From positions 1 to 10,369 of the IMG/VR virus record IMGVR_UViG_2675903352_000018: a stretch of 10,369 nucleotides of DNA. One strand, given 5' to 3'. Shown piece by piece: positions 1 through 10,369 of the stretch; the stretch's first letter is position 1, and each line of letters starts with the position of its first letter. The notes below the pieces were generated by a model. That model had not been told where the DNA came from. It ran no database searches and worked only from the letters and a program-made list of their open reading frames with translations. Source of the stretch: a virus. Lineage: Duplodnaviria > Heunggongvirae > Uroviricota > Caudoviricetes. Position numbers and translations under genes: made by a program.

Positions 1-495
1 AGTGGTGATCTCCTTGAAATTGTTAGCACAATCAATTAGATCACATCTCACTATGCCTGTCTTGTTTTCTGGGGATTCCTCAGGGGATTTTCCCTCGTTT
101 TGAGGGATGTCCCTCATTTTAGGGGAACCTCCCTCGTTTTGAGGGATGCACCATTCTGAGATGTTTTTATTTGGTCCAAACATGCCGCCTTGCTGCTTGA
201 TAATATTCATTCTGACGAGTTCTAACTTGGCTTCATTGCACCGTTTGACAGGTAACTTTGTAATCTCGCTAAGTTGAGAATCGGTGATTCTGTCCATTGG
301 TTTATTCCACCCATAGGTTTTACGCAGAATGGCAAGCAGCACTTTAAACTGTCGCTTGGTCAGATCTGCGCCTGAATAAGCCTCAATCAGCATATTTGAT
401 AGTCTGGCGTAACCATCATCGAGATCTGCCACATTACGCTCCTGTTCGGCAAAGTTACCTCTGCCGAAGTTGAGTATTTTTGCTGTATTTGTCAT
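1..495 (-). CDS. O: Replication initiator protein O, N-terminal portion (partial; continues beyond window start)
   Basis: Minus-strand frame from ATG at 495..493, preceded by AGGAG, reads MTNTAKILNFGRGNFAEQERNVADLDDGYARLSNMLIEAYSGADLTKRQFKVLLAILRKTYGWNKPMDRITDSQLSEITKLPVKRCNEAKLELVRMNIIKQQGGMFGPNKNISEWCIPQNEG... and stays open to position 1. I recognise this as lambda O from memory. It is absent from the ORF track because it runs off the window edge. Confidence 0.9.
   Translation of the reverse strand, partial: MTNTAKILNFGRGNFAEQERNVADLDDGYARLSNMLIEAYSGADLTKRQFKVLLAILRKTYGWNKPMDRITDSQLSEITKLPVKRCNEAKLELVRMNIIKQQGGMFGPNKNISEWCIPQNEGGSPKMRDIPQNEGKSPEESPENKTGIVRCDLIDCANNFKEITT
71..146. repeat. 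ori-lambda type iterons (four ~17-bp palindromic repeats) inside the O coding region
   Basis: ggggattcctcagggga (71..87), tccctcgttttgaggga (91..107), tccctcattttagggga (110..126), tccctcgttttgaggga (130..146). Lambda ori lies inside O and consists of O-binding iterons of this TCCCTC..GAGGGA form. Confidence 0.85.
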
Positions 496-527
496 AATGA
501 CTCCTGTGGATTGATCCAGTAATTCCC

Positions 528-824
528 TCAGAATTGCATATCAATTTGCTTAGAGTCCCCGGCGGCCACCGGGGATTTTTTCTTTGTGATTTCATCAAGC
601 GCATACTTAAAAGCCCTGCTAATCGGACTGATGTCTGATGCCATTCCGAAAGCACACAAGACCGAAGCAATAAATCTCCAGTCCGTTCTGCTTATCTTCG
701 ATTCATGACAGCCAATCATCTTTGCCAGACCGCGCTGGGTAAGCGTTGACAGGTTGATGAGTAAATCTGTTTCTGCGCGATCAATTTCTCGCTGTGTTAG
801 CTTGCTGTAACTTGCTTGTGCCAT
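528..824 (-). CDS. cII: CII-family transcriptional activator (lambda CII / P22 C1 analogue)
   Basis: 98-aa ORF between cro and O on the same strand. Same length class and architecture as lambda CII, with a conserved C-terminus (..KKSPVAAGDSKQIDMQF here, ..KKRPAATERSEQIQMEF in lambda). Confidence 0.85.
   Translation of the reverse strand: MAQASYSKLTQREIDRAETDLLINLSTLTQRGLAKMIGCHESKISRTDWRFIASVLCAFGMASDISPISRAFKYALDEITKKKSPVAAGDSKQIDMQF
802..815 (+). promoter_or_regulatory. Candidate P_RE -35 region: CII-binding tetrad repeat TTGC-N6-TTGC
   Basis: ttgctgtaacttgc at 802..815, overlapping the start of the cII coding region and oriented toward cI, as for lambda P_RE. No -10 element was mapped confidently. 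Confidence 0.5.
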
Positions 825-887
825 TTGTTAATTTTCCTATATTGATATATAGCGGCACACCCAGTGGATTTGCCGCTGATGTTTGCT

Positions 888-926
888 CACCCGGTTAGAG
901 GTGAAAGGCCAGAACTGTTAAAGAGC
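888..926 (-). promoter_or_regulatory. nutR site (boxA plus boxB hairpin) between cro and cII
   Basis: On the minus strand: boxA GCTCTTTAA (plus coordinates 918..926), then boxB hairpin TCACCTCTAACCGGGTGA (888..905) with loop CTAACC. The same boxA and loop recur at nutL. A further palindrome agcggca..tgccgct (851..877) lies downstream and may be part of tR1. Confidence 0.6.
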
Positions 927-933
927 AATTTAC

Positions 934-1119
934 TTATGCCGCTTGGCGGTAAGCACTTTCTTGATACTTCAGAGCGCCAGCTGTAACGATTTCCAATCGA
1001 TAGGCGTCTTTCTCTGGGATAACTTCTTTCCACTGAGAGACTGCTGCATCGCTAATGCCTAGTGCTTTAGCAACAGCACGCTGGGTTCCGAAGTGGTCAA
1101 TAACATCTTTTTTGTACAT
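934..1119 (-). CDS. cro: Cro repressor (P22 Cro-like)
   Basis: 61-aa ORF divergent from cI, MYKKDVIDHFGTQRAVAKALGISDAAVSQWKEV... with an HTH motif. Matches P22 Cro as I recall it. Confidence 0.9.
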   Translation of the reverse strand: MYKKDVIDHFGTQRAVAKALGISDAAVSQWKEVIPEKDAYRLEIVTAGALKYQESAYRQAA

Positions 1120-1131
1120 AGACTCGCTCCG

Positions 1132-1199
1132 AAATTAAAGAACACTTAAATTATCCACCAAAGGAATCTTAAGCCAAGTTTATTTAAGATGTCTTAACT
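1132..1199. promoter_or_regulatory. O_R operator region with divergent P_R / P_RM
   Basis: 18-bp P22-type operators built from ATTTAAG/CTTAAAT half-sites: attaaagaacacttaaat (1134..1151) next to cro, atttaagatgtcttaact (1182..1199) abutting the cI ATG, and a CTTAAG-centred site between them. A P_R -10 GATAAT lies on the minus strand at 1150..1155. The last operator directly abuts the cI ATG with no room for a Shine-Dalgarno, which suggests a leaderless cI mRNA as in lambda. Confidence 0.7.
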
Positions 1200-1850
1200 A
1201 TGAATACACAACTGATGGGTGAGCGTATTCGCGCTCGCAGAAAAGAACTCAAGATTAGGCAGGCTGCCCTTGGCAAGATGGTTGGCGTGTCTAATGTTGC
1301 TATTTCCCAATGGGAGCGATCTGAAACTGAGCCCAATGGCGAAAACCTATTGGCCTTAGCCAAGGCTTTGCAGTGCTCCCCTGATTACCTGTTGAAAGGA
1401 GAGGATAGTCTTTCAAACATTGCCTATCACAGCAGGCATGATCCAAGAGGTTCGTATCCTCTAATTAGTTGGGTAAGCGCAGGATGTTGGATGGAAGCTG
1501 TAGAGCCATATCATAGGCGTGCAATAGATAACTGGTACGACACAACGGTAGATTGTTCTGAAGACTCTTTTTGGCTCGACGTTAAAGGTGATTCAATGAC
1601 TGCCCCGGCAGGACTGAGTATTCCTGAAGGGATGATTATTCTCGTCGACCCAGAAGTCGAACCACGTAATGGAAAGCTGGTAGTCGCCAAACTTGAAGGA
1701 GAAAACGAGGCGACATTCAAAAAGTTAGTTATTGATGCCGGTAGAAAATTCCTGAAACCACTCAATCCACAATACCCAATGATTGAAATCAATGGGAACT
1801 GTAAAATCATTGGCGTTGTCGTTGATGCCAAGCTAGCAAACCTTCCTTAA
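1200..1850 (+). CDS. cI: CI-type repressor (HTH N-terminal domain plus LexA/S24-like autocleavage domain); P22 C2-like
   Basis: 216 aa. N-terminus MNTQLMGERIRARRKELKIRQAALGKMVGVSNVAISQWERSETEPNG matches P22 C2 as I recall it. The C-terminal domain has the GDSM serine motif (FWLDVKGDSMTAPAG) and a catalytic-lysine region (ATFKKL). Confidence 0.95.
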   Translation: MNTQLMGERIRARRKELKIRQAALGKMVGVSNVAISQWERSETEPNGENLLALAKALQCSPDYLLKGEDSLSNIAYHSRHDPRGSYPLISWVSAGCWMEAVEPYHRRAIDNWYDTTVDCSEDSFWLDVKGDSMTAPAGLSIPEGMIILVDPEVEPRNGKLVVAKLEGENEATFKKLVIDAGRKFLKPLNPQYPMIEINGNCKIIGVVVDAKLANLP

Positions 1851-1872
1851 GGGGCTTTCGCCCCTTTTTTAT
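1851..1872 (+). terminator. Rho-independent terminator after cI
   Basis: ggggc-tttc-gcccc stem-loop followed by TTTTTT immediately after the cI stop. Confidence 0.7.
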
Positions 1873-1938
1873 TTCCCGTTAAAAATCAAAGACAAACTAA
1901 ATTCGCGCCCATAAAATTAAGTTTTCTTCAAAATGCAC

Positions 1939-1967
1939 TTGACCAAAAATTAAGAGATCTTAAATTT
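1939..1967 (+). promoter_or_regulatory. P_L promoter with overlapping O_L operator
   Basis: -35 TTGACC at 1939..1944, about 17 bp spacer, then an A/T-rich -10 (taaatt). An 18-bp palindromic operator aattaagagatcttaaat (1948..1965) overlaps the spacer. A further operator-like site lies near 1913..1934. Confidence 0.6.
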
Positions 1968-2012
1968 AAGCCGTCAGCAGGAGGCTGGAAGCCAAACGGA
2001 ACAGATTGGCAG

Positions 2013-2052
2013 GCTCTTTAACATCGACGAACTCTCAACCTAACCGTTGAGA
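2013..2052 (+). promoter_or_regulatory. nutL site (boxA plus boxB hairpin)
   Basis: boxA gctctttaa (2013..2021). boxB hairpin tctcaac-ctaacc-gttgaga (2033..2052) has the same CUAACC loop as nutR. Sits between pL and N as in lambda. Confidence 0.6.
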
Positions 2053-2162
2053 CCAGAACTTGAGTGGTTTTGGGGATGGCGCGAATTGCAGCTGCAAGAC
2101 AGCGATCGAGAAGATAAGCACCTCGACGCGTCATGCGCCAAAGCCACTTAAAGGAGACCATC

Positions 2163-2468
2163 ATGGTAACCATTGTCTGGAAAGAATCCAAAGGTACGGC
2201 AAAAAGCCGCTACAAAGCTCGCAGAGCAGAACTTATTGCCGAGCGACGCAGTAATGAAGCACTGGCGCGAAAAATTGCGCTAAAGCTCTCTGGTTGCGTC
2301 AGAGCAGACAAAGCAGCATCACTAGGAAGCCTTTGCTGCAAGAAGAAAGAAGAAGTTGTTCGAAAAAATAGAAGTATTTATTACAAGGATTCAAACCCAT
2401 TAGGAAACAAAATACATGCAGTCCAAAAAATAAAATTGTACAGTAAACTACCGTACGGTGCTTATTGA
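2163..2468 (+). CDS. N: N-family transcription antiterminator (phi21-type arginine-rich motif) with a chimeric C-terminus created by the insertion at 2386
   Basis: RBS aaggag (2151..2156) then ATG at 2163. MVTIVWKESKGTAKSRYKARRAELIAERR contains the phi21 N boxB-binding ARM as I recall it. The track's upstream ATG at 2133 lacks an RBS. The last 27 codons lie inside the AT-rich insert. Confidence 0.85.
   Translation: MVTIVWKESKGTAKSRYKARRAELIAERRSNEALARKIALKLSGCVRADKAASLGSLCCKKKEEVVRKNRSIYYKDSNPLGNKIHAVQKIKLYSKLPYGAY
2376..2385. repeat. Left copy of 10-bp direct repeat ATTTATTACA flanking the insert in N
   Basis: Identical 10-mer at 2376..2385 and 2848..2857. Deleting one copy plus the intervening 462 bp restores an uninterrupted N reading frame. 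Confidence 0.8.
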
Positions 2469-2470
2469 GT

Positions 2471-2809
2471 ATGCTTATGGTGAAAAAGACTATTTATGTT
2501 AATCCTGACCGCGGACAAAACAGAAAAGTATCTGATAGAGGTCTTACATCTCGAGACAGGAGGAGAATAGCGAGATGGGAAAAGAGGATAGCATATGCAT
2601 TAAAAAACGGTGTAACACCTGGATTTAATGCTATAGATGACGGTCCTGAATATAAGATTAATGAAGACCCAATGGACAAAGTTGACAAAGCATTAGCAAC
2701 ACCATTTCCTCGCGATGTCGAAAAAATTGAAGATGAAAAATATGAGGATGTAATGCACAGAGTTGTTAATCACGCTCACCAACGAAATCCAAATAAAAAA
2801 TGGTCATAG
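2471..2809 (+). CDS. Hypothetical protein encoded inside the AT-rich insert (moron); no recognisable family
   Basis: ATG at 2471 lies 2 nt after the N stop (tgagtATG), so it is translationally coupled. 112 aa: basic N-terminal half (KVSDRGLTSRDRRRIARWEKR), acidic C-terminal half (EDPMDKVDK...DVEKIEDEKYED). Followed directly by an intrinsic terminator. The alternative start at ATG 2477 is not excluded. Confidence 0.6.
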   Translation: MLMVKKTIYVNPDRGQNRKVSDRGLTSRDRRRIARWEKRIAYALKNGVTPGFNAIDDGPEYKINEDPMDKVDKALATPFPRDVEKIEDEKYEDVMHRVVNHAHQRNPNKKWS

Positions 2810-2829
2810 CCCACTTCGGTGGGTTTTTT
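2810..2829 (+). terminator. Rho-independent terminator at the 3' end of the insert
   Basis: cccac-ttcg-gtggg stem-loop followed by TTTTTT, one nt after the stop of the 2471..2809 ORF. Confidence 0.7.
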
Positions 2830-2847
2830 ATTGGCTGAACTAACCGA

Positions 2848-2934
2848 ATTTATTACAGCAAGCCACGCAGTGAAATGGGTGTGACTTGTGTTGGTCGCCA
2901 GAAAATGAAATTAGGCAGCAAACCACTTATTTGA
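2848..2934 (+). pseudogene. N: Displaced original 3' end of N (right direct-repeat copy plus last ~27 codons)
   Basis: Reads ..IYYSKPRSEMGVTCVGRQKMKLGSKPLI then stop, closely resembling the lambda N C-terminus (..YSKPGERGITCSGRQKIKGKSIPLI). It is in frame with N 2163..2385 once the insert is removed, and has no start codon of its own. Confidence 0.75.
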
Positions 2935-2942
2935 GGTGAGAT

Positions 2943-3413
2943 ATGACAAAATCATGGAGCGTACCTTTTCCTGAATCAGAAACTGAACATGATGGAATGC
3001 CTGTTTTCTGGAGATTCCAGGCGACAGTTGAAGAAGATGGGATAAAAATATTCGCACTTCAATATATAGCTTTTCATCAGACAGAGCATTATGCATGGTT
3101 GGTTCCTGCGCATTGGATTGTTAATTTTAAACCAGCACCAAATCAGTGGTTACAGGAATGGAAACAAAGGAGAAATAGATATGCAATTAAGAAAGTAGCA
3201 AAAAATGCAGAAAGATCTTTTGCATTCCCAACGAAGAAACTTGCCATTGAGAGTTTATTGCGCCGGAAGAAATACCATTTAATGAGAATCAAACAAGATT
3301 TGGCTGTTGTATCAACTCTTGTTGATGGGATGAAGAATATTGATACATCAACACCAGATATTGAATATAACTTTGGGCACAACCAAGAAACAGAAAATTG
3401 GGTATTTTATTAG
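2943..3413 (+). CDS. Hypothetical protein at the N-proximal accessory position (where lambda has ral/sieB)
   Basis: 156-aa ORF with RBS gaggtga 5 nt upstream of the ATG, starting 9 nt after the original N stop. Soluble-looking, Trp-rich N-terminus, basic central segment (KQRRNRYAIKKVAKN..RRKKYHLMRIK). No family recognised. Confidence 0.7.
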   Translation: MTKSWSVPFPESETEHDGMPVFWRFQATVEEDGIKIFALQYIAFHQTEHYAWLVPAHWIVNFKPAPNQWLQEWKQRRNRYAIKKVAKNAERSFAFPTKKLAIESLLRRKKYHLMRIKQDLAVVSTLVDGMKNIDTSTPDIEYNFGHNQETENWVFY

Positions 3414-3931: not shown

Positions 3932-4003
3932 GCGCGGCGTTACCGCATACCAATTACGCTTCACTCGAGGCGTTTTTCGTTATGTATAAATAAGGAGCAC
4001 ACC

Positions 4004-4168
4004 ATGCAATATGCCATTGCAGGGTGGCCTGTTGCTGGCTGCCCTTCCAAATCTTTACTTGAACGAATTACCCGTAAATTACGTGACGGATGGAAACGCC
4101 TTATCGACATACTTAATCAGCCAGGAGTCCCGAAAAATGGATCAAACAATTATGGCTATCCAGACTAA
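4004..4168 (+). CDS. cIII: CIII protein (FtsH inhibitor that stabilises CII)
   Basis: RBS taaggag (3991..3997). Translation [54 protein letters not shown] (54 aa) is nearly identical to lambda CIII as recalled. Below the ORF-track length cutoff. Confidence 0.9.
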   Translation: MQYAIAGWPVAGCPSKSLLERITRKLRDGWKRLIDILNQPGVPKNGSNNYGYPD

Positions 4169-8649: not shown

Positions 8650-8994
8650 ATGTCAGATTTGGCTATGAAGGTTTTGAAATGGCAATCGACTGGCGATGTT
8701 GGCATTAGTAGCGCAACTCTTGCCTCAATCGCATGTGGACTGAAAAAGAATATCTATGGTCATCACTTCGGCGCTCCACATGACGCAGCATACTTCCGGC
8801 GATGCGTTGCACTTGTTGAGCAGATTCCAGAAATCAGAGATTCATTCGACAAGGTTGCAAAGCGCGTTCCGGCATTCAAAGGCATCCTCAACGAATGGGA
8901 TTCCCTCGTTGCTCTGTTGAAGTCTGAAATGAAGATACACGGAAACAAAGCACCAGAGACTTACAGAAGAATCAGCGAGCTACGCAAGGACTAA
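8650..8994 (+). CDS. Hypothetical protein (114 aa)
   Basis: RBS ggag (8637..8640), ATG 8650. No family recognised. Same strand and operon as the flanking genes. Confidence 0.65.
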   Translation: MSDLAMKVLKWQSTGDVGISSATLASIACGLKKNIYGHHFGAPHDAAYFRRCVALVEQIPEIRDSFDKVAKRVPAFKGILNEWDSLVALLKSEMKIHGNKAPETYRRISELRKD

Positions 8995-9052
8995 CCACAG
9001 CCTCACACTCGATGAGGCCTGTTCATTTCTCAAGATATCCAGACCTACCATT

Positions 9053-9072
9053 GCCGCATCAATGCGGCTTTT
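9053..9072 (+). terminator. Terminator-like hairpin upstream of xis
   Basis: gccgca-tcaa-tgcggc stem-loop followed by TTTT. A second hairpin gcctca-cactcga-tgaggc lies at 9000..9018. Confidence 0.4.
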
Positions 9073-9099
9073 CTTGCGTGTAATTGCGGAGACTTTGCG

Positions 9100-9318
9100 A
9101 TGTACTTGACACTTCAGGAGTGGAACGCACGCCAGCGGCGCCCAAGGAGCCTTGAAACAGTTCGTCGATGGGTACGCGAGTGCAGGATATTCCCTCCTCC
9201 GGTTAAGGATGGAAGAGAGTATCTGTTCCACGAATCAGCGGTAAAGGTTGACTTAAATCGACCAGTAACAGGTAGCCTTTTGAAGAGGATCAAAAATGGG
9301 AAGAAGGCGAAGTTATGA
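9100..9318 (+). CDS. xis: Excisionase Xis
   Basis: 72 aa, MYLTLQEWNARQRRPRSLETVRRWVRECRIFPPPVKDGREYLFHESAVKVDLNRPVTG... essentially identical to lambda Xis. Overlaps the int start as in lambda. Confidence 0.92.
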   Translation: MYLTLQEWNARQRRPRSLETVRRWVRECRIFPPPVKDGREYLFHESAVKVDLNRPVTGSLLKRIKNGKKAKL

Positions 9319-10369
9319 GCGCCGGGATTTACCCCCTAACCTTTATATAAGAAACAATGGATATTACTGCTACAGGGACCCAAGGACGGGTAAAGAGTTC
9401 GGATTAGGCAGAGACAGAAGGATAGCAGTTTCAGAGGCTATTCAGGCCAATATTGAGTTGCTATCCGAGAACAGGCGTGAGTCACTGATAGACAGAATTA
9501 AAGGCGCTGACGCAATCACTCTTCATGTGTGGCTTGACCGATATGAAAGAATCCTCACCGAAAGGGGGATCAGGCCGAAAACTCTACTCGACTACGCCAG
9601 TAAAATCAGGGCAATCCGAAGAAAATTGCCGGACAAACCGCTCACTGACATATCAACGAAAGAAGTGGCAGCAATGCTAAACACCTACGTAGCAGAAGGT
9701 AAAGCAGCTTCCGCAAAATTAATCAGGTCAACCCTTGTTGACGTTTTTCGTGAAGCAATAGCCGAGGGGCATGTGGCAACGAATCCGGTAACAGCAACCC
9801 GTACAGCAAAGTCAGAAGTAAGGCGCTCAAGGCTGACAGCTAATGAGTATGTCGAGATTTACCATGCAGCCGAACCTCTCCCTATCTGGCTAAGGCTGGC
9901 GATGGATTTGGCTGTCGTTACAGGGCAGAGAGTGGGCGATTTGTGCAGAATAAAATGGTCAGACATAAACGACAACCATCTTCACATTGAACAGAGTAAA
10001 ACAGGGGCTAAGCTCGCCATTCCGCTAACGCTAACGATTGACGCGCTCAATATCTCATTGGCTGATACACTACAGAAATGCAGGGAGGCCAGCGGCAGTG
10101 AAACTATAATCGCATCAAAGCATCACGATCCGCTTTCCCCGAAAACAGTATCGAAGTATTTTACAAAGGCGAGAAATGCATCTGGACTCTCATTTGATGG
10201 AGACCCGCCAACATTTCATGAACTGCGTAGCCTGTCAGCGAGGCTATACCGGAATCAGATTGGCGATAAGTTTGCTCAACGTCTTCTCGGACATAAATCA
10301 GATTCAATGGCTGCGCGGTATAGGGACAGCCGAGGGAGAGAATGGGACAAAATTGAAATCAACAAATGA
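9296..10369 (+). CDS. int: Tyrosine integrase Int (lambda Int family)
   Basis: 357 aa. N-terminus MGRRRSYERRDLPPNLYIRNNGYYCYRDPRTGKEFGLGRDRR matches the lambda Int arm-binding domain. The C-terminal catalytic region has the HELRSL...LLGH...Y motifs. Stop codon is the last triplet of the window, so attP lies beyond it. Confidence 0.95.
   Translation: MGRRRSYERRDLPPNLYIRNNGYYCYRDPRTGKEFGLGRDRRIAVSEAIQANIELLSENRRESLIDRIKGADAITLHVWLDRYERILTERGIRPKTLLDYASKIRAIRRKLPDKPLTDISTKEVAAMLNTYVAEGKAASAKLIRSTLVDVFREAIAEGHVATNPVTATRTAKSEVRRSRLTANEYVEIYHAAEPLPIWLRLAMDLAVVTGQRVGDLCRIKWSDINDNHLHIEQSKTGAKLAIPLTLTIDALNISLADTLQKCREASGSETIIASKHHDPLSPKTVSKYFTKARNASGLSFDGDPPTFHELRSLSARLYRNQIGDKFAQRLLGHKSDSMAARYRDSRGREWDKIEINK

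Follow-up and report, generated by a model that had tools for sequence, protein, structure and literature searches.

Directly behind the antitermination gene N of an E. coli lambdoid prophage lies a small open reading frame that an initial annotation left without a family, proposing it as a candidate moron with a defence or anti-defence function. The question is what this frame encodes and what it would do for the prophage that carries it. The stretch of DNA analysed here (10,369 nucleotides, the window) takes in the immunity region of the prophage and its early left arm, the order from the cII/cro side being N, cIII, kil, gam, bet, exo, xis and int. We are highly confident that the frame is nun of coliphage HK022, which a prophage of phage-21 immunity carries here on a compact, self-contained cassette, and that its product would exclude superinfecting phages of the lambda type. 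The idea of a moron with a defence function was thus right in kind, as the gene sits on an accessory cassette and Nun is known to defend the lysogen by excluding lambda-type phages. The features discussed below are collected in Table 1.

Table 1. Features of the N-nun region, in window coordinates
Feature	Position	Strand	Description
nutR of the resident prophage	887-926	-	Same boxA as nutL, 916-926; boxB 887-904, 6-bp hairpin, same CUAACC loop
pL, early leftward promoter	1939-1966	+	TTGACC, 16 nt, TAAATT; in agreement with the annotated pL start of phage 21
nutL of the resident prophage, phage-21 type	2013-2052	+	boxA GCTCTTTAACA, 2013-2023; boxB 2033-2052, 7-bp hairpin, CUAACC hexaloop
Chimeric N antiterminator gene	2163-2468	+	About 65 phage-21-type codons including the Arg-rich motif GTAKSRYKARRAELIAERR, last ~36 codons from the cassette; PHROG 271
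nun cassette	2357-2841	+	485 bp inserted into N in place of 13 bp, by comparison with phage 21
Putative constitutive nun promoter	2416-2444	+	-35 ATGCAG, 2416-2421; -10 TACAGT, 2439-2444; inside the chimeric N 3' end
nun coding sequence	2471-2809	+	112 codons plus TAG; PDB 6ALG, PHROG 5632, tblastn to HK022
Arg-rich motif, predicted to bind lambda-type boxB RNA	2534-2611	+	ORF residues 22-47, DRGLTSRDRRRIARWEKRIAYALKNG; 26/26 to 1HJI; role from PMC5386594 and PMC4124055
Basic C-terminal module, predicted to arrest polymerase	2756-2806	+	HRVVNHAHQRNPNKKWS; H93-S109 in literature numbering; identical to 6ALG
Intrinsic terminator after nun	2808-2831	+	7-bp stem, UUCG loop, T6; hairpin 2808-2825
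Relic of the displaced phage-21-type N 3' end	2842-2934	+	NRIYYSKPRSEMGVTCVGRQKMKLGSKPLI then stop; 30 codons plus stop, untranslated, downstream of the nun terminator

The reading frame behind N encodes Nun

A PHROGs search matched the whole product (residues 1-112 of 112) to phrog_5632, 'Nun-like transcription termination factor', with an E value of 4.5e-71. A sequence search of the PDB returned chain N of 6ALG, 'Transcription termination factor nun', with 108 of 109 residues identical (E 2.5e-71), and the boxB-binding Nun peptide of 1HJI (chain B) matched at 26 of 26 positions. Searched by tblastn against phage records, the protein matched 30 of them, with identities of 99.1% to HK022 (X16093, AF069308), 96.4% to HK75 and 93.8% to PA28 and the Stx1a-converting phages, whose Nun variants differ at a few positions within or close to the Arg-rich motif. 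The sole difference from 6ALG chain N is a serine to arginine change at residue 11 of the 109-residue numbering. This position lies outside the Arg-rich motif and the arrest tail, and HK75 and PA28 also have arginine there; exclusion and arrest by the S11R variant may proceed as with HK022 Nun. Every sequence test that we applied for membership places the window protein in the Nun family. The protein itself is already known, and nothing about Nun is new here.

The statement that the product matches no family therefore does not stand. The frame probably looked unrecognised because Pfam, NCBIfam and PADLOC have no Nun model: scans of the ORF against these three collections matched no family, in the case of Pfam at E values up to 1. 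The Pfam and PDB searches proposed at the outset accordingly differed in outcome, with no family from the first and 6ALG and 1HJI from the second. The initial annotation had also held that a confident match to a protein of known housekeeping function would count against its proposal. A confident match to a protein of known function was found, HK022 Nun, and that function is exclusion, not housekeeping.

The frame runs from ATG 2471 to a TAG at 2807-2809 and gives a product of 112 aa, while the mechanical list of open reading frames puts its start at TTG 2465. A 112-aa product is also annotated in the original HK022 record (X16093). The complete HK022 genome (AF069308) starts the gene two codons later, which corresponds to ATG 2477 here, and the 109-residue chain of 6ALG opens at the valine after that ATG, codon 2480. 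Because the chain starts at this valine, the numbering used in the literature (W108 and the like) equals the ORF numbering minus 3.

Two other identities were tried and rejected. A pseudogene is ruled out, as the nun ORF is intact and 99% identical to its known counterpart. An N paralogue acting as an antiterminator is likewise ruled out by the full conservation of the arrest tail. The ORF also matched neither of the N family models used (Pfam PF25694 N_peptide and PHROG 271).

The protein has three parts and a basic tail

The product had been described as bipartite, with a basic N-terminal half and an acidic C-terminal half. The first part of this description holds: residues 1-50 contain 14 Lys/Arg against 4 Asp/Glu (pI 11.5). 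The second does not, as the acidic part is confined to residues 51-95 (6 Lys/Arg against 14 Asp/Glu, pI 4.1) and the last 17 residues (HRVVNHAHQRNPNKKWS) are basic, with 4 Lys/Arg, 3 His and no acidic residue. The charge layout therefore has three parts, not two, with a pI of 9.65 for the whole protein, and the acidic stretch is an internal linker and not a tail.

This layout bears on the suggestion that an acidic tail might serve as a nucleic-acid mimic or protein inhibitor, so that the protein would be an anti-restriction or anti-defence factor like ral, in the slot that ral holds in lambda and phage 21. In phage 21 this slot does hold a gene with the annotation 'restriction inhibitor' (ral domain), and residues 51-95 are acidic as noted. 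Yet the protein is Nun at 99% identity, its acidic stretch is internal, and its tail is basic and is known to bind inside the elongation complex. Moreover, no anti-restriction or mimic family was matched in Pfam, NCBIfam or PADLOC, and Nun has no known function besides its effect on lambda (PMC4124055, PMC4496710). An anti-restriction factor or DNA mimic is refuted as a description of this protein by its basic tail and its identity to Nun, and we regard the chance that this alternative is correct as negligible.

The C-terminal segment of Nun has been visualised by cryo-EM within the elongation complex, where H93 and R94 touch the upstream DNA duplex, Q101-S109 touch beta', the RNA and the non-template strand, and the pocket for W108 includes beta' D329 (PMC5386594). 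The residues reported to contact RNA polymerase, RNA and DNA are H93, R94, N97, H98, H100, R102, K106, K107 and W108 (PMC5386594). All are present in the window protein, including the penultimate aromatic W108; in ORF numbering they are H96, R97, N100, H101, H103, R105, K109, K110 and W111. An alignment of homologues showed R97 to W111 (ORF numbering) to be invariant.

The literature terms Nun a lambda N homologue (PMC4124055). Similar to lambda N and other N antiterminators, Nun has an N-terminal Arg-rich motif, recognises the same lambda boxB, depends on Nus factors and acts on elongating polymerase. In contrast to lambda N, which antiterminates, Nun arrests polymerase; its C-terminal module is unrelated, and the Pfam N_peptide model misses it.

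A cassette inserted into a phage-21-type N gene

Comparison with phage 21 (OL657228) defined the limits of the insertion. Positions 1-1694 of phage 21 correspond to window 671-2356 at 98.2% identity, a segment that takes in cII, cro, cI, pL, nutL and the first two thirds of N, and the match restarts at window 2842-2945 (phage 21 positions 1708-1811, 96.2%). Window 2351-2826, in turn, is 96.6% identical to HK022. The earlier claim that the ORF is carried on an insert at the N-proximal slot was borne out by this comparison. In order, the cassette supplies a substitute 3' end for N (about 36 codons, diverged), the hexamers of the nun promoter, nun and a terminator. The close junction with N described in the initial annotation is also confirmed, as the TGA of N at 2466-2468 is followed by two bases and then the nun ATG at 2471 ('tgagtATG').

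The codons brought in by the cassette finish the resident N frame, which ends in …EEVVRKNRSIYYKDSNPLGNKIHAVQKIKLYSKLPYGAY before the stop, and the resulting chimeric gene matched PHROG 271, 'anti-termination protein N-like', with an E value of 4.6e-31. The 3' end of N is intact in phage 21 (NRIYYSKPRSEMGVTCVGRQKIKLGSKPLI before the stop), whereas the window retains its counterpart as the relic NRIYYSKPRSEMGVTCVGRQKMKLGSKPLI. PA28 and the Stx1a phages have the same chimeric N and relic, as do mEp235 and mEpX1, which form plaques, and the N protein of mEp235 is 100% identical to that of the window over residues 1-100. As plaque-forming phages share the N-nun arrangement, it must be viable and older than the window prophage, and the shared chimeric N and relic suggest a single ancestral insertion.

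The arrangement of N, nun and phage-21-type N 3' relic seen in the window also recurs in Kapi1, alongside mEp235, mEpX1, PA28 and the Stx1a-converting phages. Phage mEp235 is 98.3% identical to window 484-2935, and its 2012 record annotates a 'transcription termination factor Nun' beside an 'antitermination protein N'. The N-plus-nun arrangement is therefore already deposited and annotated. Our literature search found no paper on the co-occurrence of N and Nun, nor on the 'Nun C-terminal peptide' protein of phage 434 described below.

The window and HK022 share the protein, with identical Arg-rich motif and arrest tail, the promoter hexamers upstream of nun, a terminator after it, and the placement of the gene shortly after pL in the leftward early operon. 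[quoted passage not shown] Lambda rexAB and P22 sieB, further prophage genes for superinfection exclusion in the early left operon, are likewise accessory and protect the lysogen, by mechanisms unrelated to that of Nun.

The terminator expected behind the ORF was present as a hairpin followed by TTTTTT. Its stem reads CCCAC/GTGGG in the window against CCCGC/GCGGG in HK022, paired changes that keep the stem. The T-run in the window is cleaner than that of HK022, which reads TTTCATTTT (about positions 2838-2860 of its locus).

Beyond the cassette, a 156-aa ORF (window 2943-3413, plus strand) occupies the slot held by ral in phage 21. It is shared with PA28, while mEp235 has a different hypothetical gene downstream of nun. 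The ORF matched phrog_1636, a group of unknown function, over its full length (E 2.7e-112), matched no family in Pfam, NCBIfam or PADLOC, and carries the label 'hypothetical protein' in both PA28 and E. coli 97-3250. We regard it as an accessory gene close to N that is genuinely uncharacterised.

Resident nut sites and self-compatibility

The window nutL agrees with the annotation of phage 21 (OL657228), which has its boxA-L and nutL features at the same place, and the resident N has the Arg-rich motif of phage 21. The lambda boxB consensus GCCCTGAARAAGGGC was found nowhere in the window within 3 mismatches. Among the 11 loci fetched, lambda boxB occurred in phage 434 alone, which is without a full-length nun; it was not found in the nun-bearing loci of HK022, O276, mEp235, PA28 and E. 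coli 97-3250. Since its nut sites are of the phage-21 type and it has no lambda boxB, the prophage should not target itself. Robert et al. (1987) reportedly found that imm21 phages are not acted on by Nun.

An Rfam scan at gathering thresholds, covering the window and three related loci, reported the cIII thermoregulator alone and no model for put RNA or nut sites. In the window this element (RF01804, lambda cIII thermoregulator) lies at 3991-4049 on the plus strand, at the start of cIII, with a score of 85.5 bits.

The proximity of N and nun raises the alternative that Nun has a second role directed at the resident itself, for instance that, once the prophage is induced, Nun tunes N-dependent early transcription of the resident or the transcription of the host. 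With 2 nt from the N stop to the nun start, both proteins may be made together post-induction. At high concentrations of Nun boxB becomes dispensable, and overproduction of the protein is toxic to E. coli (PMC4124055). No such role, however, is described in PMC4124055 or PMC4496710, and the resident nut sites are not of the lambda type. We consider a resident-directed role very improbable, and exclusion of lambda-type phages remains the reading that we prefer.

Probable expression of nun from the prophage

The initial annotation had the gene expressed from pL. The order of N and nun agrees with this, and after induction transcription from pL would also read through N into nun. The picture was incomplete, as promoter hexamers identical to those of an annotated nun promoter are present too. 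In MH547045, a record of phage O276 that carries the pL-putL-nun region of HK022, a 'nun gene promoter' is annotated with its -35 element 55-50 nt and its -10 element 32-27 nt before the nun ATG. Both hexamers recur in the window at unchanged distances from its nun ATG, and all of 2400-2466 (67 bp) is identical to MH547045. The promoter was located by annotation transfer from that record, and a consensus promoter scan of the window did not pick it up. A constitutive promoter of its own matters because exclusion requires nun to be expressed in a repressed prophage. Going by its title, a report by King et al. from 2000 is said to describe constitutive expression of nun from the repressed HK022 prophage. 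From the identity of this DNA, the putative promoter may be active in the window prophage as well.

It could be argued instead that Nun is intact but silent or irrelevant here, made only from pL after induction, with the gene a passenger of recombination that gives the lysogen no exclusion. The promoter hexamers are weak by consensus, were missed by the scan and lie within the translated N gene in the window, compared with non-coding DNA in HK022. Further, HK022 nun mutants show normal lytic growth and lysogeny, so the gene is dispensable for the phage (PMC4124055, PMC4496710). Against this, the 67 bp that include both hexamers are identical to HK022-derived DNA, the cassette is intact and at least 95% identical in most of 221 E. 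coli genomes and in several phage lineages, and the terminator stem has been altered on both sides with pairing kept. Taken as sequence evidence, promoter identity, retention of the cassette and paired terminator changes point to selection on the unit. A silent nun is improbable in our estimate, and an expressed, excluding Nun is the reading carried forward.

Predicted action of Nun in the lysogen

HK022 Nun is a superinfection-exclusion factor that uses its N-terminal Arg-rich motif to bind boxB in the nut RNA of lambda, in competition with lambda N (PMC4124055). Polymerase is arrested by Nun at pause sites downstream of nut (PMC4124055, PMC4496710). In vivo Nun requires NusA, NusB, NusE and NusG, and Mfd frees the arrested complex (PMC4124055). 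Its exclusion targets are lambda and lambda imm434, which share nut sites (PMC4124055). Nun is present at ~100 nM in HK022 lysogens (PMC5386594). The specificity of Nun has been called unique, as other exclusion systems hit a broad range of superinfecting phages (PMC4124055, PMC4496710).

By extension, a lysogen of the window prophage would make small amounts of Nun constitutively from the weak nun promoter, as reported for HK022. When a superinfecting phage with lambda-type nut sites (lambda or lambda imm434) started early transcription, the Arg-rich motif would bind the nascent nutL and nutR boxB in competition with lambda N, in keeping with the literature. Together with the four Nus factors, the basic tail would then enter the elongation complex between polymerase and nucleic acids and block translocation at nearby downstream pause sites, as described in the literature and the solved structure. 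Clearance of the arrested complex by Mfd, again following published work, would leave the delayed-early genes of the invader untranscribed and result in exclusion. The resident would be spared by its phage-21-type N and nut sites, which include no lambda-type boxB. Post-induction, pL would probably transcribe nun as well, given its place directly behind N.

Distribution and breadth of the Nun family

Of 5426 complete E. coli genomes, 221 have the cassette, in every case on the chromosome, and 121 copies are at least 99% identical. Among the matches listed (30 E. coli genomes), 26 call both of the genes that underlie the match 'hypothetical protein', and the other four call one of them 'regulator' or 'transcriptional regulator'; judging by strain names, many of the listed genomes are from Shiga-toxin-producing strains. 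For E. coli 97-3250 (NZ_CP027599, locus 8813-9459), RefSeq calls N and Nun both 'hypothetical protein'.

A HMMER search of 1.84 billion protein representatives returned 13 clusters at E values up to 0.001, and with so few clusters the Nun family must be small. Its members keep the tail (M/I)x(R/K)VVNHAHQR(N/D)PxKKW, most have a PRD motif, and at least six different Arg-rich heads are represented.

Three further loci show other contexts for Nun-like or N-like sequence. Hafnia phage Pocitis76 (OL512804, positions 2240-3180 of its locus) carries N followed by two tandem Nun-like genes of 88 and 101 aa, with different Arg-rich N-termini and the Nun-like tails MYRVVNHAHQRNRHKKW and MYKVVNHASQRNPKLKW; the two may be aimed at two different nut types. 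In phage 434 (OL657227, 2218-3087 of its locus), a lambda-type N is directly followed by the gene for a 289-aa protein with the C-terminus NPVNHAHQRNPNKKWS. This protein shares its final 14 residues (VNHAHQRNPNKKWS) with Nun, shows no obvious Arg-rich motif, bears the annotation 'Nun C-terminal peptide-containing protein' and corresponds to the weak hit to phrog_12139. Phage 434 itself has lambda boxB sites. Finally HK022, which has no N gene, keeps a 38-codon N 3' end (EVVRKNRSIYCKDSNPLGNKIHAVQKIKLYSKLPYGAY) upstream of nun (HK022 locus 2381-2500, O276 locus about 780-896), with the frame broken by stops further upstream, towards putL. By tblastn, residues 22-101 of the window N matched at 57.5% the HK022 region annotated 'putL' / 'put. 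nutL equivalent'. HK022 may thus have descended from an N-nun phage.

The Pocitis76 pair, the phage 434 protein and the HK022 N remnant suggest that the arrest tail is a portable module and that N followed by nun is the older arrangement. We tentatively extend this to a broader proposal, which we hold to be somewhat less than an even prospect: Nun would be one member of a small modular 'anti-nut' exclusion family, in which a near-invariant arrest tail is joined to interchangeable Arg-rich heads, each possibly directed against the boxB of a different rival, with N-then-nun ancestral and HK022, with its N relic and put RNA, derived.

The window gene is a classic, structurally characterised exclusion protein and not a new candidate for defence or anti-defence. 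It nevertheless marks an annotation gap that affects ~4% of complete E. coli genomes, despite solved structures of Nun. The gene will keep being flagged as unknown, and a family model would fix this. The presence of nun next to a functional-looking phage-21-type N in strains rich in lambdoid prophages also raises the question of whether Nun may restrain co-resident or incoming phages with lambda-type nut sites.
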